DNA from: a virus
Lineage: Duplodnaviria > Caudoviricetes
Direction: 5' to 3' (one strand)
Length of the DNA stretch: 64,000 nucleotides
Virus record (IMG/VR): IMGVR_UViG_2728369482_000003
Coordinates: 32,001 to 96,000 of that record
Part shown: one piece after another, positions 13,189 to 57,430 of the stretch
Layout: every line of letters begins with the position of its first letter
Numbering within the stretch: position 1 is the first letter of the stretch
Made by a program: the position numbers and the translations under genes
Notes under the pieces: model-generated
The model's database searches: none
What the model was told of the DNA's origin: nothing
The model's input: only the letters and a program-made list of their open reading frames with translations

Positions 13189-13237
13189 ACCCGTTCGTTC
13201 AGGACCCTGACCGGTTCGAACCGGACGGGTAAGTTTG
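13189..13237 (+). promoter_or_regulatory. Putative late promoter, copy 1
   Basis: TCAGG-AC-CCTGA at 13199-13210; Bacteroidota -7 box TAAGTTTG at 13230-13237 (31 nt offset); ATG at 13242. Confidence 0.7.
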
Positions 13238-13241
13238 CCTT

Positions 13242-13616
13242 ATGAATCCAACGCCCCTAGAAGCTAACTGGCTGGCCGAATCCGAGCGGGTTCCCTTCCG
13301 GCTTTACCCGTATAAATCACCCGGTCAGCTGCCGGCCGAAAGTCTGACTCCGGACCTGCAGCTACGGATGCAGTCGATCAAGGGTCAACTGGCCGTAGCG
13401 ACTGGTCTGGGCTGTTCCTGCCGGGTCCACGGTCAGTTTTACCGGGCCGTACCACCGGGCGATCCCCAACCCCAGTTTTCCACCAGCTTTGGCTCCCAGG
13501 CCGTGATCGATCTGCAGACGGGTCACCTTTATTTCGGACCCGCCCAGGAAACTCTGGAAATCGGAAAAGCCGCTCAGACCGACTGGCAGTACTTTCTTCA
13601 CTACAGTATCAACTGA
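13242..13616 (+). CDS. Hypothetical protein
   Basis: 124 aa immediately behind the promoter; phage-typical codon usage. Confidence 0.6.
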   Translation: MNPTPLEANWLAESERVPFRLYPYKSPGQLPAESLTPDLQLRMQSIKGQLAVATGLGCSCRVHGQFYRAVPPGDPQPQFSTSFGSQAVIDLQTGHLYFGPAQETLEIGKAAQTDWQYFLHYSIN

Positions 13617-13620
13617 GCCT

Positions 13621-13938
13621 TTGGAGCCTGTGAATCAAATTCGTTGGAATGGATATGACACCGGTACGTTGAAGCAGCATTATGCCGACTTTACCGGGTT
13701 TAACCCGGACTATATCCAGGTTATACTCTATGACACGAAAGAGTTGATGTTTACTTACCCTTTGGACAAACTGGAGAATTTTCATCAAACGTTTGGCCTG
13801 GTAACGATCCAGGCTAACCACCTCAGTGAAGTCGTATCCTTGATAACGTTAACCGAACGGGTAGCCACCAGTAAACCCGTAATAGCCGTTCGGGCTTCTA
13901 TTATGGAACGGGAAAGACTAAAAAATCTCGCCTTATGA
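13621..13938 (+). CDS. Hypothetical protein
   Basis: 105 aa; fills the operon and is coupled to the next gene; start uncertain. Confidence 0.55.
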   Translation: MEPVNQIRWNGYDTGTLKQHYADFTGFNPDYIQVILYDTKELMFTYPLDKLENFHQTFGLVTIQANHLSEVVSLITLTERVATSKPVIAVRASIMERERLKNLAL

Positions 13939-14525
13939 TTGTTCAGGAAACCGAATACCGTATACCAGCCGTCGATGAGCTGGTAGATGGTTTTAACTAC
14001 GAGAAACTAATACCGGCTTTGGGTTGGGTAGCTAAAACCCAGGAGGGAGTACCGTCAGCTGATACTCAGGAGTTGTTTGCCAGTTTGATTCAATGGGAAC
14101 AGGTCCGGGTTTCCTATACAGTCACCCGGGAGATCGAACCGCCTAAACCTTCATACCTGGATCGGTTCAAAAGCTGGCTTTCGGAAACCCCGTTTTTCAG
14201 TACGTACGTGGCTCCCCTGCTGGCCGTGGCCGCTCCATTGGTGCTGCTGGTACTAGGCTTTGCCGGCATCGGCTTTCTGGACCTGTTGAAAATCGGGGCT
14301 ACCGGTCATCAGCTGGTTTATCTGTTTCTGAACGGACTGGTTCTGCTCACGCTGGCCCGGATCGGTGACCGGATAATCCGGTACGCCTTCGAGCATTTCA
14401 ACCTGCTGAATACCCGGCCGTCAGCAACGGATAAACCCTGGCTGCTCCCCGTCCAGACTGATTATACCCGAATCCTGCTGATTGTGATGGGGGTTCTCTA
14501 CACGGTAACCCTGCTGGCCAAGTGA
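13935..14525 (+). CDS. Membrane protein
   Basis: 196 aa with 3-4 hydrophobic segments in the C-terminal half. Confidence 0.6.
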   Translation: MIVQETEYRIPAVDELVDGFNYEKLIPALGWVAKTQEGVPSADTQELFASLIQWEQVRVSYTVTREIEPPKPSYLDRFKSWLSETPFFSTYVAPLLAVAAPLVLLVLGFAGIGFLDLLKIGATGHQLVYLFLNGLVLLTLARIGDRIIRYAFEHFNLLNTRPSATDKPWLLPVQTDYTRILLIVMGVLYTVTLLAK

Positions 14526-15124
14526 ATACCCGACGGGACTGGATTTATCAGGTACGCAGCCGGTTTCGGGCCGATACGGTAGACAGCCGGTTGTCCAATC
14601 GGATGATCAGCTTCGAACTGGAAAAAATGCTGACCCTGTTGATCCGGCGGGATTCCGACAGCCGCAAGACCTGGAAGCAGACCAACCTGTTTACCCGGCA
14701 ACTCATCGAACTGACCACCGTAGACGGTCGGAGCCGCTCGGTAAATCCCTTACCACCGATTTTTCAGGGAAGTCTGAACCCGTACCTGCAGATTCTGGGG
14801 AGTGACGGGACCAGCTGGACCTTATCGACGCCGTTGCAGCAGGCGGGTAGCTGTGGTTTTTATGGCTGGCTGGATAACGAGAATTACCTGGTACTGACCC
14901 GGCCGGGTATTACCCAGATCGAGGTTCGGTATTTCGGTAAGCCGTACCGGCAGCCGGGTAGCTGCCAGTCGGAACTGGACGTGCTGCTGCCCGTACCGGA
15001 CCACCTGGAAGAAGACCTGCTGACGAGTGTCTGCAAGAACCTGGCCGCTGCTCCCCTACCCATACCCGAAGATTCCTTTCCCAACCAGAATGCCCAGACT
15101 ACCGCTCCACGACCCACTGCGTAG
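14522..15124 (+). CDS. Ring/tail structural protein
   Basis: 200 aa; DSRLSNRMI, RS..PLP.I and YGWLDNENYL motifs resemble crAss ring proteins. Confidence 0.6.
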   Translation: MNTRRDWIYQVRSRFRADTVDSRLSNRMISFELEKMLTLLIRRDSDSRKTWKQTNLFTRQLIELTTVDGRSRSVNPLPPIFQGSLNPYLQILGSDGTSWTLSTPLQQAGSCGFYGWLDNENYLVLTRPGITQIEVRYFGKPYRQPGSCQSELDVLLPVPDHLEEDLLTSVCKNLAAAPLPIPEDSFPNQNAQTTAPRPTA

Positions 15125-15560
15125 GGGAACCCCCCGTTTTAACAAAGGGCTTTACCAGGAGCTGGCTCCCCCGGTACCGTTTATGGTCTGGAAGCAGATT
15201 ATGCTACGGATGATGGCCCTGATCGGGGAAGAAATCCTCAGCAACCGTACGGGATTTACTCTGCCGGCCCAGCTGGGTCTGCTGGTGGTAGAAAAGATCA
15301 AACGACGGTCTGATGCCAAAAAACCCTTCATCGACCGGATTCATTTCTGCAAGACCGGAGAAAAACGAATCAACTACAACCGGCATACCTTTCAGCACAC
15401 CTACCGGATCGTCTGGGCCCCGCTAAGCAACACCCGGCTGCCCACCCGAACCCTGTGGCGATTCAAAGCCAGCCGGGCCCTCAATCGTCAGCTGGCCCAG
15501 CGGATCTTTGCTGGCCAGGATTACCTGCCCCTGGCTAAACAAGCTATTCCCCACCGGTAA
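15027..15560 (+). CDS. crAss IHF-like DNA-binding protein
   Basis: FTLPAQLGLL (IHF-like), YNRHT..Y.I.W and WRFKASR motifs; true start is probably downstream, near ATG 15090. Confidence 0.65.
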   Translation: MSARTWPLLPYPYPKIPFPTRMPRLPLHDPLRRGTPRFNKGLYQELAPPVPFMVWKQIMLRMMALIGEEILSNRTGFTLPAQLGLLVVEKIKRRSDAKKPFIDRIHFCKTGEKRINYNRHTFQHTYRIVWAPLSNTRLPTRTLWRFKASRALNRQLAQRIFAGQDYLPLAKQAIPHR

Positions 15561-25650: not shown

Positions 25651-25692
25651 GATTCAGTCTATCTCACCTACTTCACCCAGGCTTTATTTTTA
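25651..25692 (+). promoter_or_regulatory. Putative late promoter, degenerate copy
   Basis: GATTCAGT (TCAG at 25654) and TATTTTTA at 25685 (31 nt offset); ATG at 25699. Confidence 0.45.
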
Positions 25693-25698
25693 GCTTTT

Positions 25699-27822
25699 AT
25701 GGCTGCTTTATTCAATAACCCCAACGGCTATGGACTGGAACGGGAAATTCAGGAAACCATGCGGGAATCCGATATTCTGGGTCAAGATGGTACACAGTAC
25801 CGGTTTACGGCAGAAGACCGGGCCAAACTCAATACTGTTGTTTCTAATAGTTTGACGTGGCGGGGAGTTTGGACGGCCCATACGGTATACGCGGTGAATG
25901 ATACGGTAACAAACAACGGAAACACCTATCGACGATTGGTAGCGGGCACATCAGGAGCTAGTTTCGACCCGGCGATGTGGGAACTACTGGCCGCGAAGGG
26001 GGACACGGGTGAAATTACGAAAGCTACTCTTGACTCCGCCATATCGGGGGTGTTTTCTCCTCCTGCAATCGACGGGTATCTCTACCGGGCAAAGAACAAC
26101 AACCTGAACCTAGTACAACCCTGCTTCGCTTTCGACCTGTCTGCAATCGCCTGGTCATCAGGGGCCAGTTTCACGTTTTCCTGCAAAATTGTTTCCAAGT
26201 CGGGCAACATCGTCTCTACTCCCCAGATTCGCACGTTCTGGAATGGTGTTTCTACAATCAACGACATTACGGGACCGTCACTTAACATATCGAAGTCCAC
26301 GACATTACCAGCTAACCAGACCATCAGTTATGCAGTAAGCGGCACTAGCAATTTCTCCAAAACCAGCTACGTGCATGTGTTTCTGGACGTGTCACTAACC
26401 GACGGAACAGTGTCGAGCGACCTGTTAATCTACGATGTAGCATTCACGGTTTCGGGTATGCCCGGCCCAAAGCTACCGGGATCGGACCTCTACCGAGCGA
26501 ACGGAACCGACACGATAACGGCTGTCACGACCCTGACCGAAGCGGCAGCTACGAAAACGTACGTGGACCAGAAAAAGGTAGAGGCACTGGCCTATACCGA
26601 TGCAGTGGTTGGACCCTTGAAGTCTAACCCTGTCGTCGGGAGTCGATACACCGGAGTGGCGAACACGGTCAATCCTACCTTAATGCAGCCGATCATCGTC
26701 TTCGATACTCAGGGGATCAACTGGGCAGTCAACGATGCTATTGCGTTCACCTGTAAGCTAATCTCCCGTAGTGGCAACATCACCAACATCGCCACTACCC
26801 GCGTGTTCGTGAATGACGTAGCCGCACTGGACAGTACGGGTGGAAGCTCTGGCAACATGGGATCGGCTTCCGCCAGTCCGGGGACGGATACAGCATTAGT
26901 CTACACGGCAACCAGGGCAGCAGCGGTGAAGGCTCGTTACATCCACGTCTATATCGACGTGACACTAACCGCTCCGACGACTCCAACTACGTTCGACATC
27001 TACGATGCAGCCCTGACGGTTAAAGGTATTTCAACCGTGCGGGTAGCGGGATCGGCCCTCTATATGGCTAACGCGAACGATACTGTTACTTCGTTTTCCT
27101 ATTTCGATAATCAGTTAGCCAATGTCGGCTACGTAAATACGCAGCGAGATGCCGCAAAAACCTACGCGGATAGCCTGATCTCTAGCAAGCTGAAGGGGAA
27201 AAAGTGGAACGCACTGGGTGATAGTATCACCTATGGACATGGGGTCGGTGTGAACGGGACCTACCGGGCAATACTCGCACAACGTTGGGGCATGACAGCT
27301 CGAAACTACGGAATTTCGGGTACCTGCTTGGCTGGTACGAGTAACAGCTTCGGGGCGAGTATGGCAACCCGGTATAATGATATGGACAACGACGCGGACT
27401 ATATTACTGTGTTTGGCGGCACAAACGACTGGTCGGCAGCAATTCCTATAGGAGTGAATACAGACACGCCAGTGGATACGTTTAAAGGAGCTTTAAACGT
27501 ACTCTGCAAGGGGTTGATTGAGAAATATCCGACTAAGAAAATTGGATTCATTAGCCCTTTAAACCATAGAACGACCAACAATTCAGGAGGGCTGTCTGTC
27601 TTGAATTATGTAGACGCGACCATCGAAATATGTGGTTTGTGGGCAATCCCTGTGCTCGATCTATATCGTCGTGGTGGCGTTCTACCAATCAACTCGGTAC
27701 AAAGGGGTACCGTGATGTTCGATAGTAACAATGATGGTATAGGTGACGATGTTCAACATCCAGGCCCCGTGGGTCACGGAATGTTGGCTGACCGAATCGA
27801 AGCTTTTATGTTGATGCTCTGA
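25699..27822 (+). CDS. Tail-fibre-like SGNH esterase with a CBM5/12-like motif and a duplicated beta domain
   Basis: WRGVW..Y..ND.V motif; two copies of a ~170-aa domain; LGDSIT, GGTND and HP SGNH motifs. Confidence 0.75.
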   Translation: MAALFNNPNGYGLEREIQETMRESDILGQDGTQYRFTAEDRAKLNTVVSNSLTWRGVWTAHTVYAVNDTVTNNGNTYRRLVAGTSGASFDPAMWELLAAKGDTGEITKATLDSAISGVFSPPAIDGYLYRAKNNNLNLVQPCFAFDLSAIAWSSGASFTFSCKIVSKSGNIVSTPQIRTFWNGVSTINDITGPSLNISKSTTLPANQTISYAVSGTSNFSKTSYVHVFLDVSLTDGTVSSDLLIYDVAFTVSGMPGPKLPGSDLYRANGTDTITAVTTLTEAAATKTYVDQKKVEALAYTDAVVGPLKSNPVVGSRYTGVANTVNPTLMQPIIVFDTQGINWAVNDAIAFTCKLISRSGNITNIATTRVFVNDVAALDSTGGSSGNMGSASASPGTDTALVYTATRAAAVKARYIHVYIDVTLTAPTTPTTFDIYDAALTVKGISTVRVAGSALYMANANDTVTSFSYFDNQLANVGYVNTQRDAAKTYADSLISSKLKGKKWNALGDSITYGHGVGVNGTYRAILAQRWGMTARNYGISGTCLAGTSNSFGASMATRYNDMDNDADYITVFGGTNDWSAAIPIGVNTDTPVDTFKGALNVLCKGLIEKYPTKKIGFISPLNHRTTNNSGGLSVLNYVDATIEICGLWAIPVLDLYRRGGVLPINSVQRGTVMFDSNNDGIGDDVQHPGPVGHGMLADRIEAFMLML

Positions 27823-27853: not shown

Positions 27854-27902
27854 CCTAAACGATTCAGGTTTCCTGCTGCCCACTAAAACCGGCTTACCTT
27901 AA
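27854..27902 (+). promoter_or_regulatory. Putative late promoter, copy 3
   Basis: CCTAAACGATTCAGG (TCAGG at 27864) and TACCTTAA at 27895 (31 nt offset). Confidence 0.6.
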
Positions 27903-27930
27903 CGGGTCTGCCGGTTTTCTTTATTTTTCT

Positions 27931-39518: not shown

Positions 39519-39675
39519 AGTATCCGTTCGTATAAATGGTTCGACATTTGTACAACCCAAATAGGATTATACTATAACTCAAATATACAAAAATTACTTA
39601 TTGGTATACGTCTCAAGTATACCAAATTACTAGACAAATTCCTATATTGATTTGATTTTACCGGTTGATCAGCTC

Positions 39676-40110: not shown

Positions 40111-40112
40111 CG

Positions 40113-40718
40113 TTAGAGTGAATCGAAACTGAATTTAGGTTGAACTTCAACTATGGGTGATTTGGGAGGCTGGGTAGCACCACGCTTCTGGTGAGCCACA
40201 ATCTGTAAAGCAGCCGGGTTATGTTTTTTGAAATATTCTATCCGGTTACCGTTAAACAGGTAATGGGGATTGATCCAGTATTCATTCATACACCGCCGAG
40301 CCAAGAATCCATTTTTGATTAACTGCTCAATCGAAGCATAAAAAGTGGGGCGGCTGAATCGTACGGCTTTACAGACGTCAACCGCTCGTAGTTTGACAAT
40401 ATCCTGGTTCTTCTTCAGGGTATACGTTATGTGTAAGAGTAGATCCCGGGAGGATGGACTCAGTACCCCAAATACCAGGTCTTCGGTTGTCTTATCATAG
40501 TAGAGCTTACAGCTTAATCGTTGATCACTGTAATACCCTTTCCGTAGTTCTTCATAATCGAGGGTTACATCTTCTTCAAAAACAGTTTTAATGGTTGACG
40601 ACTGAATGACTCGTATTACCGGCAGTCGGTACGAGTAGATAAAAGGATTCATAAAAGTCTGATTGATCCGCAAGTAGTAAAGATTTCTAACACATTTTTG
40701 GTTCGATTTGGTTAACAT
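40113..40718 (-). CDS. RepL-like winged-HTH protein
   Basis: SRPTFYASIEQLIKNGFL...YWINPHYLFNGNR matches the RepL signature; start may be the later Met (MNPF). Confidence 0.7.
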   Translation of the reverse strand: MLTKSNQKCVRNLYYLRINQTFMNPFIYSYRLPVIRVIQSSTIKTVFEEDVTLDYEELRKGYYSDQRLSCKLYYDKTTEDLVFGVLSPSSRDLLLHITYTLKKNQDIVKLRAVDVCKAVRFSRPTFYASIEQLIKNGFLARRCMNEYWINPHYLFNGNRIEYFKKHNPAALQIVAHQKRGATQPPKSPIVEVQPKFSFDSL

Positions 40719-40973
40719 TTTTGATACTCTTAAAAGTTAATATTCTTTACCATACCCCTATTTTTCTACCGTAAAACATATAACCCTTCATTGATCCAGT
40801 ATAACTATAACAGGTTAAGTTAGAAACACCCTATGCTATTTAATTGGTAATCAATAATCTATAACACATTTTTATGTTAACTTTATACTAACACGGGAAC
40901 CCACGGAAAAACGGGAAGCTTGGATTCTTTTCCGGATTAAACCTGAATAAATCCGAATTGAATTACGGACCAA

Positions 40974-41022
40974 ACTCGTCCATTCAGGCTCCTGACCCGG
41001 TGAAGCAGTTCGGTTACCTTTG
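40974..41022 (+). promoter_or_regulatory. Putative late promoter, copy 4
   Basis: TCAGG-CT-CCTGA at 40984-40995; TACCTTTG at 41015-41022 (31 nt offset); ATG at 41029. Confidence 0.75.
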
Positions 41023-41028
41023 CTCATT

Positions 41029-44000
41029 ATGCCCTACCAGCCTCTTTGTCTGAATCCCCAGGACCCAACCGTCAAGCAGTTTATCAACCAGTACGGTATG
41101 CGGGAAACGTACCGGATCTACACCCAGCACCAGTACTGGTTGCCGGACTTCACGGCGTATCAGAACCGGACCCAGGCGGACGTCCTGCCTACTCAGGGAG
41201 CTATGGATTACCTGCAGTCGATGGTCAGTCTGGATCAGTTCAACACGGACAACCTGGCAAACATCGGAGTCGAACTGCCCCAGGGTACTGAAGCGGCTTT
41301 CTGGCGGGATACGTTTTATTTCGGAGACAGTATCAGCCGGGGAGCCCTTTCGGAAGAAGCCTTTCACGCCGTCTTTCAACGAGTAATTCCAGGTACTGAA
41401 CAACAGGACCTGCTGGACACGGGTAAACAGCTGCTACAAGCGGATCTGAAAGTACTGGGTCATACCAGTCTGAACGGCTACTACCAGACCATGCTCCAAT
41501 CGGCTCCCCAGACCTACGAAAATCTCTCGAAGGAAGCGGGACTAAACCGGCTCTACGAGGAGAAACTGGCTACTGAGTTTGTCCGCTGGAACACCTACGG
41601 TAAACAGGCAGCCTGGGAAGCTGACTGGACGAAACGATTGGCTCCGTACCTTGGAGCTAAATCGGCCAGCCGGATCAGTGGTCTAATCAGCCGGCTGTTT
41701 ACCCGGTTGAAAGCCGTTATGGGGTTATACGACAAAAACCGGCTTAAAGCCGATCTGTTCTTTTCCCGTCTTCGCTCAGGTGTCTACCAGACGGCTAAGG
41801 TAACCGAAGCGGGAAACCTTAATACCGTCCCCACGACCCGGCTCATCCGACTGGGTAACGGACAGACCGTATCGGTTCGGGAATCCACCCAGCTGCTGCG
41901 AAATCTGGGAGCCCTGGTGCTCCAGTTAGGGGATCACGATTTATTCAGTTACCTATCCGAACCCGAACGAATCGAGAAAGCCCTGGAATTAATGAGCAGC
42001 CAGTATGGAAGGACACCTGGTGGAAAACAAGTGTCACTGGTTTTAAAACCTACCTATTTTGATAAGGTATCAAAGCAGAAAGAAGTCAACCCAGAGTACC
42101 AGTTGATCAAAGCGGATCTGGAAGCTTACCTGGGTGAGCTGCGGAGCGTATCGACCCTGCTGGATGAATCGGAAGAAGACGAGATTGGGGGCGGCATAAA
42201 CGAGTTTGCCGGCTACGACAAGGAAGCCAACGAGATCGGCGGGTTTGCCGGGCTGTCTACCTGGGTCAAGCAGTTCATTGCCCGGACGGGTATTCCCCGC
42301 CTGGATAGTAACGGCCTTCCCCAGGTTCATACGGTAGATACGGGCAATGGAGTCATCGAACTTCCGATCCTGGATGTAGTCGATCCCCAGCAGGTGTATA
42401 CCGGTCTGGCCCGGAGTTTATCAAATACTACCGGGGTCAACGACCGATTGGAAAAACTGCTGGTCCTGACCCAGTTCGACGGTAACCCGGCTACCCGGGC
42501 CGTGACCGATCAGCTCCTTCGGGATATGGCCCCGGTTCGCTACCAGGCTACCCCGGCCCTGCAAGCCATCCAGGAACGCTTCACGCTGACGGATGGTATC
42601 CGAACACCCCAGCAGCTGGATCGGGCTTTACAAATAGCGGATGCCCGGTTGACGGCCAGGGATCGTTCCGCTATTACCCAGCAGGCCTTTACCCGTTTGC
42701 AGGAAACCAGTCCTCGGGTGTTACGAGAAGAACTGCTGGCGGCTATCCGGACGGATACGCTGGATAGTTATCTGTCTTCGGCCGGTAAAAACGTACTGAT
42801 CCGAATTCTAAAAGGATTCGATCTCTGGAAACGGGACATGCTGAATATGCGGGTAGATCCATCCAACGGACTCTCGGTAATCAGTGAAGCCAACGTGGAA
42901 CGGGCCAGCAAACAGCTCCTGGCCCGCTGGGAGAGTAACTGGAACCGACGGACTACTGAAACACCAGATCAGCTACCCACTGGACCGGATGTTGTCAACA
43001 GTCGAGTAACCTTGGAAACAAAGGATTTTCCGCTGGTTCAGCTGGAAGCCCTAGCTTTACCCGAACAAACGGCTTACATCGAATCCGTATTTGATCGGGA
43101 AGTTGATAAACAGCTTCGCTTTTTAAACCGGTTCGGCATTCAGGTACCGTCGGCTTATCTATACTACCGGCTTCAATGGTTTGCCGAACAACGGTATCCT
43201 GCATTACCCGGCATTAACCAGACTCGTTCAGCCCGGTTAAAGGATTTATACCCGATACCGGATAGTTTGTTGTTGACCCCGGATGATCTGGGTTTACTGG
43301 ATAAATACGTCCAGAACCCAGCCGTGTCTCCCTACCAGGCAACCGGCTCCAAAGGACTCGAAGCCGGGATGCGGACACGGCTGCAGAAACTGGCCGAGGG
43401 AGCCGCCCGTTTCGACGAGTCGGCCGTGGACAGCTCCTACCAGAACGCAGAAGGCAAAACCATCTACAGCTACCAGCAGAAAACCTACAGCCTGGAATTT
43501 TTCAACTGGTTTGGGCAGACCGGTTTGACTAAACTGGAAGACCTGTACCGGACCGGTAACCGGACCCGGCTCCGGGATGATCCGTCCGGTAATCCGGTTT
43601 ACCTTCAGCTCGATAGCTGGGCTTTGCAGAAAAACCGGCTGCTCAAAGCCATCCTGACCGATCCGGCCGTACGGGCCCAGCAGGGTAAACTCACGGCCTT
43701 TACCGTGGACGGTACGACCCAGACCCAGCTGGAAGGAACCCCGGACAACGCCCGTTCAAGACCCGATGCCCAGGCCGGGGAAGGGGTTACCTACGGAGGG
43801 ATGTCCCCCCGGGAGTTCGACCAGTTCAACCTCAACAGCCTGGTGTCTCGTTCGACCACGGTGGGCAGTCTGACCATCAGCCCGGTGTTCCTGGGCAACC
43901 GGGAAACCAGTAAGACGGGGGAGTACATGAATCTTCCGTTACTTACGGGTCTTATCGAAAACGATCAGCTGACCGATAAGGGAGCCAATCTGCTACTGGA

Positions 44001-47000
44001 CGAGATCCAGAAAGAATACGAACGAATTCAGCAAACCTACAAAGAAATAAACCCGGACGAGAACGGGAAGCCTAGGTATTCAGCTGAACTTGAAAAGGCC
44101 CAGAACTACCACACCGGGAAATCCCTGAAACCCGTGGTGGTCAAGGATCCGACCCGCTTATCGGTGACGGTTCACGTACCGAGCGCCGGTAAAGATTTTC
44201 GGGGGCTGCAGTTCACCGACGGACTCCGGGGCTTACTCCCCGGTAACTGGCAAACACTACCCCAGCCGGGTGATACCGAAGCCGGTAACCTGATACTATC
44301 GGCCCTGGCTGGTTATGACTTTCCCCGCCAGAAACTACTGGCTCCGATCAAGCAGCAGATCCGGGCTAACCTGGACGAGCACCTGGACCGTTTTGCCCAG
44401 GAAGGACTCTGGAAAGCCGATCTTTCAGGTCCCACGACCCTGCTGAATCTCCGGCTGAGCAAAGCCCGGGTGGAAAACAAGCTGGTATCGGACCTGCTGA
44501 ATAACATCGCCATGGGGCAGCTGGCCTACGGGGATGCGGCTCTGCTCTACAAAAACGACGGGGTAGACGTCTTCAAACGACTCAAGGGGCTCAACGCGGC
44601 TATCATTAACTTTAAAATACCCTTCAGCTCCCCGGCCCAGGGAATTGATGAACCGGCTACGTATCTGAAAGCTTTGACCATCGGAGAACCGACGGCTGTC
44701 AGTGACGTCTCCGGGGGCTCGATCGATCTGGCCGATGCTCAGGGCTACCAGAGTGTTCAGGCCCGTCGAAAACACCTCTACGGAGCGGGCCGGCTGGACA
44801 GTCTGCAGGTCGAAGTGCTCGACGCCATACAGGAAGGCAAACCTGTCCGGGGCAAACTGCTGGCCCGGTTGCGGGAATCAGGGATTATGTACAACTCGGA
44901 GAAGACCGTGGGAGCCGACGGGCAGCAGTACAAAAAGCTCTCGGAGACGATTCTCTCCAAAGAACTTACGGCCGATCCCTACCCGATCACCAAAGAACAG
45001 TTTGATCAGTGGGCCAGTCTGGACAGCTACAACCGGACCCGGCTGAATCCCGGATCTCCCGAAGTAAGCTCCTATATCGACGACAAATCTGGTCAGCGGG
45101 TCTACCGGCAGTGGGTCCCCAAGCCCGGCCGCCGGAGTCTGAACGAGCTTCGGTTGAAAATGGACGGCTTTGAGCGGGTCGGGGACAACTGGCAGTTTCG
45201 GGGTTATGAACACCGTATCGATCTGGTAACACCCCTCTCGGCCAGTAAAACCCTGAACGTGAATGTTCACGAAACGAGAACTGACGCTGGTCAGCCCGAC
45301 TGGGGGCAGGTCGATGACCGGAGCATTCACCAGCTGGATTTCAGCTTTTACGGGCTGCAGACGGAAAACCCTTCGGGTAAAACCAAGATTGTCGATCCGA
45401 CCCAGATGCTGGAGATCATTGCCAACGAGTTGGGAGACGATGCTAGGGTCTGGTTCGAACAGGAATTTATCGGCAAGAACCAGATCGAAACCCTCTGGCA
45501 AAGCTACCTTCAGCAGCGGGATTCGACCAACTACCAGCTGGCAGAGAAAGTCTTCCAGGACGAATCGGGTAATCTGACGCTCCACCGGTTCCGTCAGCAG
45601 GCCTTCGAAGCGGTTATTCGCTCGGGTAAAGACAAACAGACAGTTGATCTGTTCGATCCCCAGCATAACCTGAATCTGAACCTGCCCCTGACCAGGGATC
45701 AGTTCATCAGCCAGTTCTTTTCCCATTTCTCCAAAGGAGTACTATCCCACAAACGGGCGGGGGATTCACTGGCCCACGTGTCTTCGTTTGGTCACCAGGT
45801 CATTAAAAAGCTCCGCCGGGTCAAGCTCGACGACGGTTCGACCAATATCACCTGGGACGTTATCCGGGACGGCTCCCGGGAATACCAGCTGGCCCTTGGG
45901 CAGGGTCTCTCGGGTAGTTTGGCCCCATTCCGCTACAAGCACGAGTTCGACGGTAAAAGGCGGATCGAGCCAACTGGTTACACCGATTCAAAAGGGAATA
46001 CCAACTCCAGCTGGTTTAGTCAGGCTACTACGCTACTGGGTGATCAGGACTCGGTCTACGTACTGGACAGTCTTCGGCACCTTAAACCCCGGCTGGAAGA
46101 AACCGCTCCCGGCTCCAATGTGTACCGGCAGACGGGGTATTTCTCCGAAGCCCTGATGCCGGTACACGACGATCAGATTCGGGAGCTGACGCCGGACCTG
46201 CGGTATAGCTTTGGGGTCCGGATTCCTTCCCAGGACAAGCACTCGGCCATGAATGTGGAGTGGGTGGATACGCTGCCGGTTTTCATGGGTTCCAGTGTGA
46301 TTCTGCCCAAGGAAGTCGTCGAGCTGTCGGGTTCCGATTTTGACATCGACAAACTCTATTTGACCCGCTTTGATGGATACTGGAAGAAAGATCGGAACAA
46401 CCGGAATCAGTTCGTAGCTTACGGATCGGAGCAAACCGACGAAGCCCGGTGGGAAAGTTACGTCCATTACCTGCTGGATCATTACCCGGCCATCAAACGG
46501 GAGCTTCGTCAGAAACTCCAGGATCCGACTTATCAGGATTTAGCTGTAGTAGTCCGGGCTCTGCAGGCCGATCAATCGGAACAGTTACTGGATGACGAAC
46601 AGTTGTCGGACTGGACGGCCGCCAGTCTCCAGCTATACTTTGCCGGCGATCTAGCTGGTTTGAAAGCCGGGCTGGACAGCCAGTACCAGCAGGCCCTGTC
46701 AGAAGTCCTCTCTCAGTTCGGCCTGCCGGCCAGTCAGAACACCTATACCAGTCTGCCCAGGGCGGAACAGGAAGCCCTGCACGTGGGGATCATCCAGAAC
46801 CGGATGCTCTCGCTCCAACAGGGACTCCTGGCCAACGATACGACCATCAATGACAGTAATCCGACGGGTGGTCAGTACAACCAGCCGGCGGCTCTGGATA
46901 AACTGAACGAGCTGAAGGGAGAAACCCAGGACGGCACCCGGCTGTTTGGTGAATCGGTGGCTCCGATTTCGACCCACTGGCAGCTGACCCACAGCAGGGT

Positions 47001-50000
47001 TCATCAGAAAAACGGAGTGGGTAAAGCCCTGATCGGTATCGGGGTGAATACCAACTTGTTTCTAATCAATGCCGTCCGGCTGGGCTTTCAAGTCCATCCC
47101 GACTACCTGCCTAAACTGGACGACAACCGTTCCCATGACGGGATCTACCGGGCCCAGACGGTGGGGAAAAACGGCGAGGCAGTTCGGAGCTTTGATATCA
47201 ACTCGACGATCATTACGGCCGATACCGACGAAGCCAAGGAAGCCCTGAACGCCTACTACCAGCTCAACAGCGATACCCAGGCTGTGGTACTCCACCTGAC
47301 GGGGATTGGCTACAGTCTGCTCGACGGACTGACACTGGTCAACCAGCCGGTGATTCAACGCTACGTGGCCCTGACCGAACAGGCCCGCCGGGTCAAACGA
47401 GGTATTGGGGTTATCAGCAAGGAAGAAGAAGGACTTCGGTTTGCCAGCAAGGATAAACTGGTCCGGCAGGCGCTGGGCTTATCGGATACCGACAAACTGG
47501 ACCTATCCGGAAGCTACACCGTCGAAGCCCTGCGGAACCAGTTGGCTGGTTACCGCAAAACCGGAACGTATCAACGGTCCTCAATTGATGGACAACTGCT
47601 GACCGATTTTCAGAACCTGGTCGAATTGAACGAGTACGCCAGTAACTTCGTCCGGTTCATCAAGCTCAAAAAAGGGTTTGGTCGGGAGCTGCCCGCCTTC
47701 GATCAGCTGGTCAAAGCCGGTGAACGACTGGGGTTTGGAGCCGTAGAACCCGAAGCCGCTCCGATCGATATCAAAGCCAAGCTGGAAGCCAAACCCAGAC
47801 TGGCCGCCCAGTATTTGAACCTGATCAACCAGATCGTCCCCCGCTCCCAGGCCCTGCAACAGCAGGTGATTCTCCGCCGGCACCCCCTGTTTACCGGACT
47901 CCAGCAACAGGTCAGTAATCAGCTAAACATGGTCTCGGCGGCCGATCAGGAGATTCTGGCCCGGGCGGTGGAAACCTTTTTGTTAACCAAACTCTACCAG
48001 CAGCAGGGCTTCCAGCTGGATCCGGCCAGTGTATACCAGGACGGCGGGGACGAACGAATCACCCGGCAACTTCAGGCCTTTCAGCGGGATTACGCGTTTG
48101 TCCGAAAAGATGAGAACGGACTGATCCTGGAAAAAAGTATCTTTGCCGATAACCCGATCTTCGAGCTGCTTCAGCCGGTAACGGGTACTGATGGAACCAG
48201 TACCCTCCGACTCGGCGGAGCTCTCAAGCTCAGTCCATCCCAGCAGGAGAATCTGCTGGATGCGTTCCAGGATCTCTACACCCGGCCGAACCAGCCAGTG
48301 ATCGACGGACAAACGGTTGGACAACTGATGGCTACCCGGCTGGTGAATTACCACCTGGTCAAGGAAGGGTTTCAGTTTACGGTCAACAGCATCAGCCGGC
48401 TGTTTCCCCCGGCCGTCTTTGCCCAGCTCAGCCAGCAACTCGATCAAATCCAGGCTAATCCGGACGTATCCGGAAATACGGTAAATCAGTGGTCCGCTGA
48501 CCTACTGACCAGTCTGGGTCGGGACGTGAACTACCAGACGTATGTTAAGCCCTTACGCAGACCAACTGGTAAAAACTCATTAGCCAGTCTGGTTAAACAA
48601 TCCGGATTCTGGCAGTACCAGACGGCCGACGAGCAAGTGAGTAAACAAGCCCTGACTACCGACCTGGTACTAGATAGCACCCGGATTCCCGCTGATAAAT
48701 CCCAGGAGCTGTATCCCAGTATGGGTCTGGGGTATTCACCCAAAACCGGATCGGTTGATTTCCCCCGCTTTATTCGGGTTGAAGAATGGATGAACGGGGG
48801 TACGGGTGAGTACGGCGAGGAACTACCCAGCTACAAACAGGCTAAAACCTACGAGCTGGTGAGTGTTATCGGTACCGATGGAAAGGTGATTCCCCTGTCA
48901 CAAATCGAAGCCAGTCCGGAAGTATCCGGAAGTAAAGCCCGCTACGTCGAAGTCATTCCATCGGGAGCCAAAGGAATCTCGGGGGCTACCGGCTTACCGG
49001 CCCACTACAGCCCGGCAGCCAAGACCAAACGGGATGCCTTGAGTAGTCAGGTTAAGCCCGGTTCGGCTACGGCTAACTACTATGGATTAGCGGGGAATCC
49101 AATGCTACCTGCTCTAGTAACGGGTGTAAGTCAGTCACCGATAACTATTGTCGAAAAACCTGTCGTTACCAACAAAGAATTGGTCATTTCTGTTTTACCG
49201 GAAACGACCGAAAAGGGTAAGCGGGCAGAAACCACTACGAAGTTTGGGGTTGAGAAGCCGCTGAGCTACGAGCAGCTGGGAACCGAGCAGAAGCAGTTTG
49301 TGGATAAGCTCCAGTCATTTGTGCTGACTGATTCGTTTAATCCCCGGGATGCCGAGTCGGTACTGGTACTGGAAGGGTCGGCGGGTACTGGTAAAACAAC
49401 GTCGGTAAAAGTAGCCCTGCAGCAGCTACTGGAATCCGGCCGAGTTTACCCTGAACAGATTATGCTGTCAGCTCCTACGCACACGGCTCTGAAGACCTTG
49501 TTCCGGTCCGTTCGGGGAGTAAGGCATCGAAACCGAAATCCGATGAATACGGCCCGTTTTTACAAAAACAACGTAAAAACAGTTCAATCCCTGCTGGGAG
49601 CCGTTCGTCGGGTCAATCAGAACGGGGAACTTCAGTTTTCTATCAGCAAGACCACCAAGGAAAAACTGCTGGATATCCGGTTGCTGATTATCGACGAAGC
49701 GTCCATGATTTCCAATGTTCGGGAAAAGGGAGCAACGGTTAGTATGTTGGAAGGGCTTCAGGGTTTACAGGACGAACTACCGAACCTGAAAATTCTGTAC
49801 ATCGGGGATCCGAACCAGATACCTCCGGTGAATGGAAAAGAAAGTGTTGTTTTTAGTCTGTACCGGAATAACCTTCATCGGCTGACGCAGGTATTCAGGC
49901 AGTCGATGCAGAATCCGGTCATTCGAACGCTGACCCGGATCCGGGAGAAGATTGATCAACCGACGGATCCGCTGGATTACAAATCAGCCATCCATAACGG

Positions 50001-51099
50001 GGAAGGGATTGTATATACCGGGTCTTCCGCTGCCTTTATGGAACAGGTACGGGATCAGTTTACCTCGGACGGTTACGCAGCCAACAAAGATTTTACCAAG
50101 GTTATTTCCTACACCAACCAGGCCGTACAGCGGTTTAACCAGCTAGTCCGTCGGTACCGGTTCGGAGACCTGCCGAAATTTCTGGAAATTGGGGATGTCG
50201 TGATGGGCTACGCCAATACCGATATTATCAACGGACAGGAGTATGAGGTCCGCTCTATCACTGAGAATCATCCGATCCAGCTGGACGAACTACTCAACAG
50301 CAGTACGGCTACGGGTCAACGGCAGCTCCAGTTACTAACCGATGAATTTCCCCGGCAGGTTCAGCAGCTACGGGCTAATCCGCCCATTGGCTACAAGGTA
50401 GAACTCGAAGAAGTTAACTCGATCAAGGCTGAATTCGACGAATCACCCCGGCAGACTAGTTATCTGCTGGACGTCAAGAACGAGTCCGATATCGATTACA
50501 TCCGGGAGCATCTGAATCTGGTAGGAGCCGTACGAACAAAGATCAACGCTACCTGGTCGGAGTACAACCGAACCAAAAACCGGAGTTTATTCGGCCTGAT
50601 TCAGGAGCTGGAAGGCGTTCGACAAAGTCTGGAAATGATTAACTTTAACCAGCCAATCATTCAGTACCAGAACCAGTTCTACCCCCAGAAGCAGCTGGTG
50701 TTGATTCTCCAGACTGCTGGACAAAGCCCGGACCAGATTGAACAGATTCTTAGCCGGGGTAATATCGTGGACAAGACCTACGATTATGGCTATGCGATTA
50801 CAGCCCATAAAGCTCAGGGAAAAACCTACGTCAACACGCTGATTAACCTGGAAGACATTGACGGTAATAACGACCGGAGACGGCTAGCCAATCCCAAAGA
50901 AGTAAACCGGATTCGGTACGTAGCCTTGTCCCGGGCTACTGGCATCGATTACGTACTGACCCCCAAAGCTGAATCCGTTTCCCAGCCCATTACCGTTAAA
51001 CCTTCCCTATTTGACATCGGTACCCCGGGAGAATCCCTGGATGAGCAGACCGATACTGATTTACGGCTCGACCAACCCTGCGCCAAACCCACCGCCTGA
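41029..51099 (+). CDS. Virion RNA polymerase (crAss/phi14:2 gp66 type) with an N-terminal degenerate zincin and a C-terminal SF1B helicase
   Basis: RIPSQ and GSDFDIDKL (46336-46350) catalytic motifs; EEAFH..EEKLA; GSAGTGKTT, IIDEASM, GDPNQIPP, HKAQGKT and YVALSRA. The ORF track's TTG at 41020 lies inside the -7 box, so ATG 41029 is preferred. Confidence 0.9.
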   Translation: MPYQPLCLNPQDPTVKQFINQYGMRETYRIYTQHQYWLPDFTAYQNRTQADVLPTQGAMDYLQSMVSLDQFNTDNLANIGVELPQGTEAAFWRDTFYFGDSISRGALSEEAFHAVFQRVIPGTEQQDLLDTGKQLLQADLKVLGHTSLNGYYQTMLQSAPQTYENLSKEAGLNRLYEEKLATEFVRWNTYGKQAAWEADWTKRLAPYLGAKSASRISGLISRLFTRLKAVMGLYDKNRLKADLFFSRLRSGVYQTAKVTEAGNLNTVPTTRLIRLGNGQTVSVRESTQLLRNLGALVLQLGDHDLFSYLSEPERIEKALELMSSQYGRTPGGKQVSLVLKPTYFDKVSKQKEVNPEYQLIKADLEAYLGELRSVSTLLDESEEDEIGGGINEFAGYDKEANEIGGFAGLSTWVKQFIARTGIPRLDSNGLPQVHTVDTGNGVIELPILDVVDPQQVYTGLARSLSNTTGVNDRLEKLLVLTQFDGNPATRAVTDQLLRDMAPVRYQATPALQAIQERFTLTDGIRTPQQLDRALQIADARLTARDRSAITQQAFTRLQETSPRVLREELLAAIRTDTLDSYLSSAGKNVLIRILKGFDLWKRDMLNMRVDPSNGLSVISEANVERASKQLLARWESNWNRRTTETPDQLPTGPDVVNSRVTLETKDFPLVQLEALALPEQTAYIESVFDREVDKQLRFLNRFGIQVPSAYLYYRLQWFAEQRYPALPGINQTRSARLKDLYPIPDSLLLTPDDLGLLDKYVQNPAVSPYQATGSKGLEAGMRTRLQKLAEGAARFDESAVDSSYQNAEGKTIYSYQQKTYSLEFFNWFGQTGLTKLEDLYRTGNRTRLRDDPSGNPVYLQLDSWALQKNRLLKAILTDPAVRAQQGKLTAFTVDGTTQTQLEGTPDNARSRPDAQAGEGVTYGGMSPREFDQFNLNSLVSRSTTVGSLTISPVFLGNRETSKTGEYMNLPLLTGLIENDQLTDKGANLLLDEIQKEYERIQQTYKEINPDENGKPRYSAELEKAQNYHTGKSLKPVVVKDPTRLSVTVHVPSAGKDFRGLQFTDGLRGLLPGNWQTLPQPGDTEAGNLILSALAGYDFPRQKLLAPIKQQIRANLDEHLDRFAQEGLWKADLSGPTTLLNLRLSKARVENKLVSDLLNNIAMGQLAYGDAALLYKNDGVDVFKRLKGLNAAIINFKIPFSSPAQGIDEPATYLKALTIGEPTAVSDVSGGSIDLADAQGYQSVQARRKHLYGAGRLDSLQVEVLDAIQEGKPVRGKLLARLRESGIMYNSEKTVGADGQQYKKLSETILSKELTADPYPITKEQFDQWASLDSYNRTRLNPGSPEVSSYIDDKSGQRVYRQWVPKPGRRSLNELRLKMDGFERVGDNWQFRGYEHRIDLVTPLSASKTLNVNVHETRTDAGQPDWGQVDDRSIHQLDFSFYGLQTENPSGKTKIVDPTQMLEIIANELGDDARVWFEQEFIGKNQIETLWQSYLQQRDSTNYQLAEKVFQDESGNLTLHRFRQQAFEAVIRSGKDKQTVDLFDPQHNLNLNLPLTRDQFISQFFSHFSKGVLSHKRAGDSLAHVSSFGHQVIKKLRRVKLDDGSTNITWDVIRDGSREYQLALGQGLSGSLAPFRYKHEFDGKRRIEPTGYTDSKGNTNSSWFSQATTLLGDQDSVYVLDSLRHLKPRLEETAPGSNVYRQTGYFSEALMPVHDDQIRELTPDLRYSFGVRIPSQDKHSAMNVEWVDTLPVFMGSSVILPKEVVELSGSDFDIDKLYLTRFDGYWKKDRNNRNQFVAYGSEQTDEARWESYVHYLLDHYPAIKRELRQKLQDPTYQDLAVVVRALQADQSEQLLDDEQLSDWTAASLQLYFAGDLAGLKAGLDSQYQQALSEVLSQFGLPASQNTYTSLPRAEQEALHVGIIQNRMLSLQQGLLANDTTINDSNPTGGQYNQPAALDKLNELKGETQDGTRLFGESVAPISTHWQLTHSRVHQKNGVGKALIGIGVNTNLFLINAVRLGFQVHPDYLPKLDDNRSHDGIYRAQTVGKNGEAVRSFDINSTIITADTDEAKEALNAYYQLNSDTQAVVLHLTGIGYSLLDGLTLVNQPVIQRYVALTEQARRVKRGIGVISKEEEGLRFASKDKLVRQALGLSDTDKLDLSGSYTVEALRNQLAGYRKTGTYQRSSIDGQLLTDFQNLVELNEYASNFVRFIKLKKGFGRELPAFDQLVKAGERLGFGAVEPEAAPIDIKAKLEAKPRLAAQYLNLINQIVPRSQALQQQVILRRHPLFTGLQQQVSNQLNMVSAADQEILARAVETFLLTKLYQQQGFQLDPASVYQDGGDERITRQLQAFQRDYAFVRKDENGLILEKSIFADNPIFELLQPVTGTDGTSTLRLGGALKLSPSQQENLLDAFQDLYTRPNQPVIDGQTVGQLMATRLVNYHLVKEGFQFTVNSISRLFPPAVFAQLSQQLDQIQANPDVSGNTVNQWSADLLTSLGRDVNYQTYVKPLRRPTGKNSLASLVKQSGFWQYQTADEQVSKQALTTDLVLDSTRIPADKSQELYPSMGLGYSPKTGSVDFPRFIRVEEWMNGGTGEYGEELPSYKQAKTYELVSVIGTDGKVIPLSQIEASPEVSGSKARYVEVIPSGAKGISGATGLPAHYSPAAKTKRDALSSQVKPGSATANYYGLAGNPMLPALVTGVSQSPITIVEKPVVTNKELVISVLPETTEKGKRAETTTKFGVEKPLSYEQLGTEQKQFVDKLQSFVLTDSFNPRDAESVLVLEGSAGTGKTTSVKVALQQLLESGRVYPEQIMLSAPTHTALKTLFRSVRGVRHRNRNPMNTARFYKNNVKTVQSLLGAVRRVNQNGELQFSISKTTKEKLLDIRLLIIDEASMISNVREKGATVSMLEGLQGLQDELPNLKILYIGDPNQIPPVNGKESVVFSLYRNNLHRLTQVFRQSMQNPVIRTLTRIREKIDQPTDPLDYKSAIHNGEGIVYTGSSAAFMEQVRDQFTSDGYAANKDFTKVISYTNQAVQRFNQLVRRYRFGDLPKFLEIGDVVMGYANTDIINGQEYEVRSITENHPIQLDELLNSSTATGQRQLQLLTDEFPRQVQQLRANPPIGYKVELEEVNSIKAEFDESPRQTSYLLDVKNESDIDYIREHLNLVGAVRTKINATWSEYNRTKNRSLFGLIQELEGVRQSLEMINFNQPIIQYQNQFYPQKQLVLILQTAGQSPDQIEQILSRGNIVDKTYDYGYAITAHKAQGKTYVNTLINLEDIDGNNDRRRLANPKEVNRIRYVALSRATGIDYVLTPKAESVSQPITVKPSLFDIGTPGESLDEQTDTDLRLDQPCAKPTA

Positions 51100-56118: not shown

Positions 56119-56126
56119 TAACCTAA

Positions 56127-56396
56127 TTATTTTTTAGCTAATACCAACATGGGATCATCAAACAAATAAGAACCGGTAATTTGACCGTTTCTATACTGCT
56201 CGACAGCAACAACATCTCCCTGCTTAAAACCGGTTACGTTACCCATGATTTTGGCAGATACTTCCAAAGCACCAGCTTCGGTACCGTCAAGTGGGCCAGC
56301 CCAGCCTTTGAGCATAATACAACCAATCCCATTTTTTACACAGTCAGGTTTGGTACTCTTAGCAGCTTTAACGAAGATGGTTTGTAGTACAGCCAT
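56127..56396 (-). CDS. Hypothetical protein
   Basis: 89 aa in a minus-strand operon. Confidence 0.55.
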   Translation of the reverse strand: MAVLQTIFVKAAKSTKPDCVKNGIGCIMLKGWAGPLDGTEAGALEVSAKIMGNVTGFKQGDVVAVEQYRNGQITGSYLFDDPMLVLAKK

Positions 56397-56408
56397 TTTT
56401 TGAATTAG

Positions 56409-56831
56409 TTAATAGTGAAAACGATATTGATCAATTAATGCTTTATTACTACCCCATCCAGCCGGACCTGGTTTTTCCATTAGTTTACTGGATAGTAAAT
56501 GAGCCTGTTGGTAGCGGATAACAAACGAGGTTAATCCGAATTGACCGTTACCTTGCAAGGGTTCCAACCGGGTTGAGAACTGACTGGCTAATTCGTTGAA
56601 CCGACTGGTAAAACAAGCCAGATCATCCAGGTCCGTATCGTTGGTAATGTTGTAGGGAACCAGGATTCGAATTTTATCCTGGGCGTCCGGTTCTCCCCGA
56701 CGAACTTTTTGAGGGCCTTCGGGTACAGCCATTCCTTCCCCGATATGATCACCGGTACTAATGTAGTGGTTGATAGCCAGGAATAACCGGTTGATGGGAG
56801 TATTCTCTAACGGTTCAATGGGTGTAGCCAT
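56409..56831 (-). CDS. Hypothetical protein
   Basis: 140 aa in a minus-strand operon. Confidence 0.6.
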   Translation of the reverse strand: MATPIEPLENTPINRLFLAINHYISTGDHIGEGMAVPEGPQKVRRGEPDAQDKIRILVPYNITNDTDLDDLACFTSRFNELASQFSTRLEPLQGNGQFGLTSFVIRYQQAHLLSSKLMEKPGPAGWGSNKALIDQYRFHY

Positions 56832-56844
56832 TGGGAGATTAGTG

Positions 56845-57249
56845 TTAGTATTGGTTACCTACCCAGATTTCAGTTTTAGCTAGCTTAACCAGATCGACGG
56901 GTTGGGTATAATACGCAAATTCGTTAAACCGAAGCACAAATTCAGGTTTGGGCAACCGGGCATCATACGGTTCATCCCCTTCCCCGTGAATCCAATCCAG
57001 ATAATCCGAAATGGATTCAACGTGTCCATCGGCAAAAACAAGTCCTTCTCCGTAGTTGCTGGCTACGGTTTGATGGGAACAGGGTATCAAATTAGACCGG
57101 TGATCCGAGTCGTTCCAGATTTTTTCTTGGTTATCTAGTAAAGCCTGCTCACTGGTGAATACCCGTAATGAACGTACCGGATACCCATCCCGGGTGGAAA
57201 ACGCATTATCGGTCGCTAATCCCTGGGTGGCAAAAAACAGAGTCTTCAT
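56845..57249 (-). CDS. Hypothetical protein
   Basis: 134 aa with an A-rich leader; first gene of the operon. Confidence 0.6.
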   Translation of the reverse strand: MKTLFFATQGLATDNAFSTRDGYPVRSLRVFTSEQALLDNQEKIWNDSDHRSNLIPCSHQTVASNYGEGLVFADGHVESISDYLDWIHGEGDEPYDARLPKPEFVLRFNEFAYYTQPVDLVKLAKTEIWVGNQY

Positions 57250-57380
57250 TATGTCAGTTGTTTGTGTGGTTACTAGTTACTAACTCACTCCGCCAGAAGT
57301 TGACGGTAAGATCGGATAAATCGGGGAATTCTCCGAAAGATTGTGTAATTGGTTAATCGACTACGGGGCTATAGTACTGC

Positions 57381-57430
57381 CCTAAACGGGTCAGGGTCTG
57401 AGGGGCCGGGATAGAGCGGATGTATCTTGC
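57381..57430 (+). promoter_or_regulatory. Putative late promoter, copy 5 (tailspike operon)
   Basis: CCTAAACGGGTCAGG (TCAGG at 57391) and TATCTTGC at 57423 (32 nt offset). Confidence 0.55.

Follow-up and report, generated by a model that had tools for sequence, protein, structure and literature searches.

Promoters recognized by the primary sigma factor (sigma-A) of Bacteroidota carry a -33 TTTG and a -7 TAnnTTTG element (PMC7366714, PMC6847099, PMC9723704). In the crAss-like phage phi14:2, genes of the middle and late classes are transcribed by the host RNA polymerase (RNAP) from an "extended tripartite motif", which in related crAss-like phages is most frequent ahead of the polymerase, gp069, IHF, gp092, and portal genes; bare host holoenzyme, even that of Escherichia coli, reads the middle promoters in vitro without a further factor (preprint 10.1101/2020.03.07.982082). 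Here, we report a class of phage-specific, promoter-like sites, in which TCAG, mostly within TTCAGG, precedes a host-type TAnnTT box by 31 or 32 nucleotides (nt). The sites were found in and beside a 64,000-nt window (positions 32,001 to 96,000 of IMG/VR record IMGVR_UViG_2728369482_000003; G000:C9:140245-204244) that lies inside a crAss-like prophage of about 120 kb in a Spirosoma genome. We know of one cultured crAss-like member with mapped promoters, phi14:2; to our knowledge, little has been learned about the regulation of transcription in crAss-like phages, and its regulation in integrated members has not been studied.

The phi14:2 sequence ahead of g070, g075, g108, g110, and the portal gene reads, in order, as an A-tract, (c)TTGac or TTGca, a spacer of about 20 nt, and TAnnTTTGTA, with the ATG 4 to 6 nt past the box at g070, g110, and the portal gene. 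A preliminary description of the window had cited, correctly, both the sigma-A consensus and the transcription of phi14:2 late genes by host RNAP, and had proposed that a TCAGG box replaces the -33 element and defines a late regulon for this crAss-like group. A phage-specific, promoter-like class with a host-type -7 box before plus-strand virion blocks is supported in silico; the replacement of the -33 element and the extension to a wider group are not.

The sites and their spacing

Five of the sites lie in the window, where the preliminary description had rightly placed TCAG at 13199, 25654, 27864, 40984, and 57391 and TA..TT at 13230, 25685, 27895, 41015, and 57423 (offsets of 31, 31, 31, 31, and 32). 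A sixth site, S0, was found by extending the scan to the whole prophage. Coordinates are those of the window, with negative numbers to its left.

S0, window -3777 (L016:12467), + strand: sixth site, ahead of the portal gene and 3.8 kb to the left of the window.
S1, 13186..13244, + strand: predicted promoter of the gene block that begins at 13242.
S2, 25654..25701, + strand: site before the tail-fibre gene 25699..27822 (phrog_5240).
S3, 27854..27933, + strand: site before the 27931 block (875-aa, 156-aa, and 1812-aa proteins).
S4, 40970..41031, + strand: predicted promoter of the putative virion RNA polymerase gene 41029..51099 and the following 1512-aa gene.
S5, 57381..57453, + strand: site before the 57451 block (a 231-aa protein, a fibre- or decoration-like 396-aa protein, and a tailspike-like 746-aa protein).

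Of the 121-kb prophage, the 6.8 kb that is non-coding contained 6 matches, each in the same orientation as the gene downstream; within the window, the loose pattern matched 7 times on the plus strand and 2 times on the minus strand, and 5 of these matches were the intergenic sites already claimed. Comparison with shuffled sequence, a check put forward in the preliminary description, gave 0.41 ± 0.65 matches over 2000 dinucleotide shuffles against the 6 observed, and no shuffle reached 6. The spacing itself was examined with a histogram of the distances from real intergenic TCAG to TANNTT, which keeps the real words and asks only about distance: 5 pairs stood at 31 nt and a single one at 32 nt, no other offset between 8 and 70 nt had more than 1, and in the opposite orientation no TCAG-TANNTT pair occurred at 31 or 32. 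When every 4-mer and 5-mer was scanned without bias, at every offset upstream of non-coding TANNTT, TCAG at 31 (TTCAG at 32) ranked first and TGAC at 22 second.

TCAGG is common in coding DNA (227 copies on the plus strand), so that only the spaced pair is informative. TAnnTT followed at offset 31 or 32 for 5 of the 14 non-coding TCAGG words on the plus strand and for 0 of 14 on the other strand. The longer word TTCAGGNNCCTGA occurred just twice in the whole 6.57-Mb genome, at S1 and at S4.

Beyond the anchor bases, ungapped comparison matched S1 to S4 at 30 of 57 positions (p 4e-5), S0 to S5 at 28 of 57 (p 3e-4), and S3 to S5 at 24 of 57 (p 0.01). The word ACYCGTYCRTTCAGGNNCCTGACC is indeed common to S1 and S4, as is CCTAAACGRKTCAGG to S3 and S5. 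The TCAGG box that the preliminary description gave to all five window sites is present at S1, S3, S4, and S5; S2 has TCAGT instead (25654-25658), and past the anchor bases it is not like any other site (pairwise, all p > 0.18). S2 is therefore a weak and doubtful member and may be accidental, because about 0.4 chance matches are expected.

The rest of the genome shows no such pairing. Over the other 6.45 Mb of the host chromosome, TCAGG stood 31 nt before promoter-proximal boxes 4 times, as against 1 to 5 times at other offsets, and TCAG at 31 occurred in only 3 of 309 host promoters, with no enrichment. The box is thus phage-specific, given the absence of any excess at 31 nt elsewhere, and a host regulon was rejected on the same ground.

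The prophage extends from a tyrosine integrase (window -31999..-30776; Pfam Phage_integrase, with SAM-like and Arm domains) at least to the contig end, at +88.6 kb, and has a guanine-plus-cytosine (GC) content of about 55%. The integrase promoter has a canonical TTGACA-type -33 element and no TCAGG. Marker genes encode a portal (phrog_6547; nearest named relative, a Spirosoma terrae protein at 52% identity), a major head protein, large virion proteins, a CrAss_Ring_2-like protein, and a tail lysozyme. The 3356-aa product of 41029..51099 has a DFDID that aligns with the catalytic motif of phi14:2 gp66, by which it is identified as the predicted virion RNA polymerase. The 13242 block comprises the ring-protein-2-like gene at 14522, an IHF-like gene at 15027, and genes for a 1487-aa virion protein and the tail lysozyme; the IHF-like gene (15027..15560) corresponds in position to the phi14:2 "IHF subunit" g073, to which its similarity is weak (E 0.001). 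In the left arm are anti-defence domains (Acb2/Tad1 and Tad2-like), Endonuclease VII, and HAD_SAK_2, as well as a divergent, switch-like region at window -19405/-19276 with GGAGTCC direct repeats. ARAGORN called a 101-nt "tRNA-Phe" at window 7832-7932 on the minus strand, antisense within the coding sequence 6505..8196, which is probably a false positive; tRNA scans of the prophage gave no other tRNA, and a scan against Rfam gave no matches.

The relative used for comparison is a prophage of Spirosoma terrae (here G328), the only one found in a genus-wide search of 54 genomes. It is collinear, with 25-63% protein identity over its whole length (53% for the portal) and fewer intergenic breaks; its polymerase gene, for instance, directly follows the preceding gene. 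G328 has neither a TCAGG box nor any other box at a constant offset, so that a late regulon shared by this crAss-like group is not supported. Protein-based scans of viral, genome, and metagenome contigs returned only distant loci or the G328 prophage itself, and a large protein database contained portal relatives at 51-59% identity on long contigs, of which those at 56-59% are closer than G328. Another genome, G109, was set aside as too distant and not collinear; three IMG/VR matches to the 19-base pattern of S1 and S4 were also rejected, as they came from one lineage, had no start codon after them, and were about the number expected by chance.

Host promoter geometry and hairpins

Host geometry was derived from the Spirosoma genome itself, by pairing TAnnTTTG with the first ATG downstream that opens a long open reading frame (ORF). 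The distance from box to ATG peaked sharply at 4 nt, with 35 cases against 10 at 3 nt and 11 at 5 nt, and a second, broad class spanned 17-35 nt; the leaderless class, at exactly 4 nt, made up about one tenth of the promoter-proximal boxes counted. At the prophage sites the distance is 4 nt (S0 and S1), 6 nt (S2 and S4), 20 nt (S5), and 28 nt (S3), within the two classes of the host.

In Flavobacterium johnsoniae, the -7 element runs from T-12 to G-5 and transcripts start 4-5 nt past it (PMC6847099). Flavobacterium psychrophilum motif SM5 is TAnnTTGY (PMC9723704), and in Bacteroides and F. psychrophilum the modal or median leader is 23-24 nt long (PMC7366714, PMC9723704). The boxes of S1 (TAAGTTTG, 13230-13237) and S4 (TACCTTTG, 41015-41022) are perfect TAnnTTTG; those of S0 (TAGTTTCG), S2 (TATTTTTA, 25685-25692), S3 (TACCTTAA, 27895-27902), and S5 (TATCTTGC, 57423-57430, offset 32) match at 6 of 8 positions or as the TAnnTTGY variant, which TATCTTGC fits. 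By sequence and placement, then, the TAnnTT boxes resemble the sigma-A -7 elements of Bacteroidota. At S0 and S1, the A of the ATG is the predicted +1, and S1, with its ATG at 13242, would be leaderless. Predicted leaders are 1-2 nt at S4 (ATG 41029), about 15 nt at S5 (probable ATG 57451), and 23-24 nt at S3 (predicted start about 27907, ATG 27931); the S2 ATG is at 25699. The start codons of two genes are backed by alignment to G328, that of the portal from residue 3 and that of the polymerase beginning a few residues past ATG 41029.

The -33 element is weak across the 309 host promoters; TTG, where present, is mostly 20 nt before TA, and only 50 of the 309 have TTG at offsets 21-24. S1 and S4 have CTG at exactly this spot, within CCTGACC (13206-13212 and 40991-40997; CTG-N20-TA), and the right half of their "palindrome" (TCAGGACCCTGA, 13199-13210, and TCAGGCTCCTGA, 40984-40995) is therefore taken as a -33 element. 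With the T of the box set at -12, TCAGG falls at -43 to -39, some 8 bp upstream of the -33, and TTCAGG (13198-13203 at S1, 40983-40988 at S4) ends 2-3 nt upstream of the -33-like element. TCAGG does not stand in for the -33 element, whose place at S1 and S4 is filled by CTGAC. Host promoters had no conserved information at -44 to -39. As 31 bp is about three helical turns, TCAGG and the -7 box would face the same side of the helix. A consensus scanner for sigma-70 promoters and terminators was uninformative for Bacteroidota.

The architecture is more composite than the preliminary description conveyed, with the box inside a hairpin at S1, S3, and S5. All of S1 lies within a hairpin at 13186-13233 (free energy, -28 kcal/mol; z score, -4.7), and the spacer between its -33 and -7 elements contains a perfect 14-nt palindrome (CCGGTTCGAACCGG, 13211-13224). 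At S3, CCTAAACG (27854-27861) and TCAGG (27864-27868) precede a classic terminator hairpin placed after the tail-fibre gene (arms 27885-27893 and 27910-27918; T tract to 27929; 9-bp GC-rich outer stem; -18.5 kcal/mol; z score, -5.9), of which the -7 box is the loop. S5 begins likewise with CCTAAACG (57381-57388) and TCAGG (57391-57395) and is embedded in a strong hairpin at 57392-57449 (-34 to -42 kcal/mol; z score, -4.0 to -4.7), and its -7 box is the midpoint of an inverted repeat of 14 bp, GGCCGGGATAGAGC / GCTTTATCTCGGCC (57405-57443); the site lies in a divergent intergenic region, where a plus-strand terminator has no obvious use. Strong hairpins were absent from S0, S2, and S4; the S2 TCAG is the 3' arm of a weak one, and S4 gave no significant hairpin (z score, +0.8). 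The hairpins do not explain the spacing, because they are not in a fixed register with TCAGG. The predicted start at S1, S3, and S5 is 3' of the 5' arm, and the new transcript would therefore lack the stem. The additional dyads in S1 (CCGGTTCGAACCGG) and S5 (GGCCGGGATAGAGC / GCTTTATCTCGGCC) may, speculatively, be further operators, or just hairpin stems.

S0 (L016:12422-12512, window -3822..-3732) consists of CCCGTTCAGG, 26 nt, TAGTTTCG, 4 nt, and the portal ATG, with TCAG 31 nt ahead of TAGTTTCG. Just upstream are three tandem TTCAG units with a period of 22 nt and a perfect 10-nt inverted repeat, CCTGAACGGG / CCCGTTCAGG, which hint at multiple binding sites near the portal gene. A terminator-like GC stem with a T tract was seen farther upstream, at about L016:12350-12378. 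In G328, the region upstream of the portal gene (g328rc 41173-41259, the L009 region) forms a hairpin whose outer stem, TACCCGT...ACGGGTA, is as in the S1 hairpin, with a different inner palindrome, GGTAGATCTACC, followed by TTTGTTTTT; the stem words shared with S1 may be coincidence. The hairpin words ACCCGT...ACGGGT did not form a repeat family in the prophage genome or in G328.

Proposed mechanism, rivals, and candidate regulators

What the sequence shows is the motif, at a set spacing and biased in strand and location, in a geometry that fits host and phi14:2 promoters; from this we infer promoter activity, start sites, and a cognate factor. On balance, and by a modest measure, we hold it probable that the five TCAGG sites (S0, S1, S3, S4, and S5), perhaps with S2, are middle or late promoters read by host RNAP with its primary sigma factor and aided by a factor that docks at TTCAGG. 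Such a promoter would have three parts: a Bacteroidota -7 box, TAnnTT(T)G, spanning -12 to -5; a -33 part that is weak and, in the two best copies, is represented by CTGAC at the host TTG spot; and the phage-specific TTCAGG at about -44 to -39, exactly 31 bp before the -7 box. Starting 4-5 nt past the box, RNAP would make leaderless or nearly leaderless mRNAs for the 13242 block and for the portal, polymerase, and possibly fibre genes, and mRNAs with leaders of 15-24 nt from S3 and S5. With the start past the 5' arm, the stem could stop or stabilise upstream transcripts and leave the new transcript unaffected. A trans-acting protein, probably encoded by the phage, would dock at TTCAGG, touch RNAP from a fixed position, and so time the expression of the virion genes, the promoters thereby being quiet in the lysogen. 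Docking of an activator appears the most likely mechanism because the register is strict, the -33 elements are poor, and the -7 boxes are imperfect.

Several observations weigh against this account. The transcript starts are all predicted from the sequence, and the one sequencing run listed for this DNA, with no RNA run beside it, is a DNA run that may be the source assembly. Four of the six -7 boxes deviate from TAnnTTTG, and S0 and S1 have a G at a variable position where F. johnsoniae promoters avoid it. The inverted half-site CTGA lies 3-5 nt from TCAG, a variable distance that is unusual for a rigid dimer site. The S3 box is the loop of a terminator and the S5 box the tip of a hairpin, so that these matches could stem from structure; S1 and S4 may simply be a recent duplication. 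With the motif absent from the collinear G328, evolutionary support is limited to one genome. Finally, an activator was not found: Pfam searches covering 104 of the 166 called ORFs (84 in the flanking regions, even at E 0.1, and 20 in the window) revealed no helix-turn-helix, sigma, repressor, Cro, or late-activator domain.

The 20 window ORFs, among them the three proteins that the preliminary description had named as candidates, had no family at the Pfam cut-off, with sub-threshold matches only to CrAss_Ring_2 and Malectin; PHROGs and NCBIfam searches of small candidate proteins gave nothing usable. One of the three, 38478..38915, had a very weak RsfA/Myb-like match (E 0.02). Another stands out by its position:

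40113..40718, - strand: basic 201-aa protein (isoelectric point, 9.5), divergent from S4, in a low-GC cassette.

Its look-alikes in the ESM Atlas are RepL-type winged-helix clusters (score, 0.96). Pfam, PHROG, NCBIfam, and PDB sequence searches gave no match to it, and a single-sequence AlphaFold model was unusable (mean confidence, pLDDT 37). It may be a RepL-like winged-helix DNA-binding protein, and it is no more than a candidate for a factor acting at the TCAGG box. The cassette (window 36569-40718) has a GC content of 0.33-0.43 versus 0.55, is mostly on the minus strand, includes a lipoprotein-like gene (37642..38040; signal peptide and Cys) and several proteins without database matches, and looks like a moron or accessory island; an unrelated cassette is found elsewhere in G328, before its orthologue of the 27931 gene. 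The RepL-like gene and S4 are separated by 300 nt of AT-rich, divergent DNA (window 40719-41019) with several TATAAC words and scattered inverted repeats, which could be an origin or regulatory region.

A broader reading, less likely than not, is that TTCAGG is the target of a so far unrecognisable phage protein (the ORFs scanned yielded no known DNA-binding domain) which, in this temperate crAss-like phage, either switches host-polymerase promoters on or holds them off. A rival to the activator, in which TCAGG is an operator for lysogenic silencing and a dimeric phage repressor binds TCAGG-NN-CCTGA over the -33 (about -43 to -32), is rather unlikely. A temperate phage would need its virion promoters shut in the prophage, given that phi14:2 middle promoters fire with holoenzyme alone, and this phage is integrated, with a tyrosine integrase of its own. 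The palindrome overlaps the -33 position, further inverted repeats cover the spacer or -7 box of S1 and S5, and the perfect -7 boxes of S1 and S4, in a host where the -33 is weak in general (50 of 309), mean that these promoters might be active alone. However, it is only the TCAGG half that recurs at all sites, the second half being degenerate and variably spaced, and a strict 31-bp register is needed by a factor that contacts RNAP, not by one that occludes it; nor was a repressor-like helix-turn-helix protein detected in the ORFs scanned with Pfam.

That there is no promoter class at all, and that the six matches are a mixture of terminator or RNA-stability hairpins mimicking TAnnTT, one duplicated segment (S1 and S4), and chance, we regard as quite improbable. 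It would account for the strong hairpins of S1, S3, and S5, with z scores of -4.4 to -5.9, the S3 hairpin being a canonical terminator, and it accords with the frequency of TCAGG, the accidental look of S2, and the absence of the motif from G328. It does not fit the hairpins being out of register with TCAGG and missing at S0 and S4, the survival of the 31-nt spacing in controls that preserve word frequencies, the agreement of box-to-ATG distances with host promoter classes, or the setting of S5 in a divergent region, where a plus-strand terminator is unneeded. Least probable is direct contact, in which TTCAGG is an upstream element touched by host RNAP (its alpha C-terminal domain or sigma) that raises promoter strength with no phage factor. 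In its favour, TTCAGG occupies the place of the phi14:2 A-tract, immediately upstream of the -33, and would be its functional equivalent; phi14:2 promoters work unaided in vitro, and no activator gene was found in the ORFs scanned. Against it, host promoters have neither information nor a TCAG excess there, UP elements are A/T-rich and TTCAGG is not, and G328, from the same host genus, lacks the box. A reading of TCAGG as the -35 of an alternative sigma was rejected, the 26-nt gap to the -7 box being presumably too long for sigma geometry.

If the broader reading is borne out, in which a phage protein at TTCAGG switches these promoters on or holds them off, it would provide a first handle on the control of virion genes by a member of Crassvirales, both during lysogeny and upon induction, where an injected virion polymerase is lacking, and a new type of regulator for the unusual sigma-A polymerase of Bacteroidota. 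The prophage offers a compact, testable regulon of five to six sites with one exact spacing and start sites predicted to the nucleotide, several falling on the A of the ATG. Because the organism can be cultivated, induction is open to experiment, and the box could be used as bait for the factor behind the timing of virion genes. In annotating genomes and phages of Cytophagales, both the promoter-inside-terminator layout and the leaderless class of the host should be useful.

Comparison with known systems

Temperate phages such as Mu (Mor/C) and those with the P2 Ogr family have activator-dependent late promoters, in which a good -10-type element is joined by a poor -35-type one and by a conserved site just upstream of or overlapping the -35, repeated before each late operon. 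The combination of elements in the prophage is alike, as a resemblance only; the sequence of the site and the type of host sigma differ, and no homologue of these activators was detected in the ORFs scanned. T4-type phages reportedly carry promoter-plus-stem-loop cassettes (PeSL), in which hairpin and promoter are likewise packed between genes. Unlike in PeSL, the promoter of the prophage sites lies inside the hairpin and not after it, and the sites are no evident mobile repeat family.

With the primary-sigma promoters of Bacteroidota, the sites share the -7 sequence, its inferred position at -12 to -5, the distances to the start codon, and a weak -33; unlike host promoters, they carry a conserved element at -44 to -39.

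The tripartite promoters of phi14:2 have the same block order in a near base-for-base register and, often, an ATG 4-6 nt past the box. The -33/-7 pairing is CTG-N20-TAnnTTTG at S1 and S4 and TTG-N20-TATATTTG at phi14:2 g070, the other sites being weaker. The downstream genes also correspond to those of phi14:2, in sense orientation: the portal (S0), the ring- and IHF-like block (S1), and the putative virion RNA polymerase (S4). Host RNAP reads the phi14:2 promoters and is presumed to read those of the prophage. In contrast to phi14:2, whose promoters are mapped, the prophage sites are predicted from their sequence, their -33 is CTGAC or absent rather than TTGAC, three copies are in hairpins, and the phage is integrated and GC-rich (55%). 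The third block, just upstream of the -33, is in the same position in both phages and differs in sequence, being TTCAGG here and an A-tract in phi14:2; the sites are best read, from this arrangement, as the phi14:2 tripartite design in a varied form, its upstream block being new.

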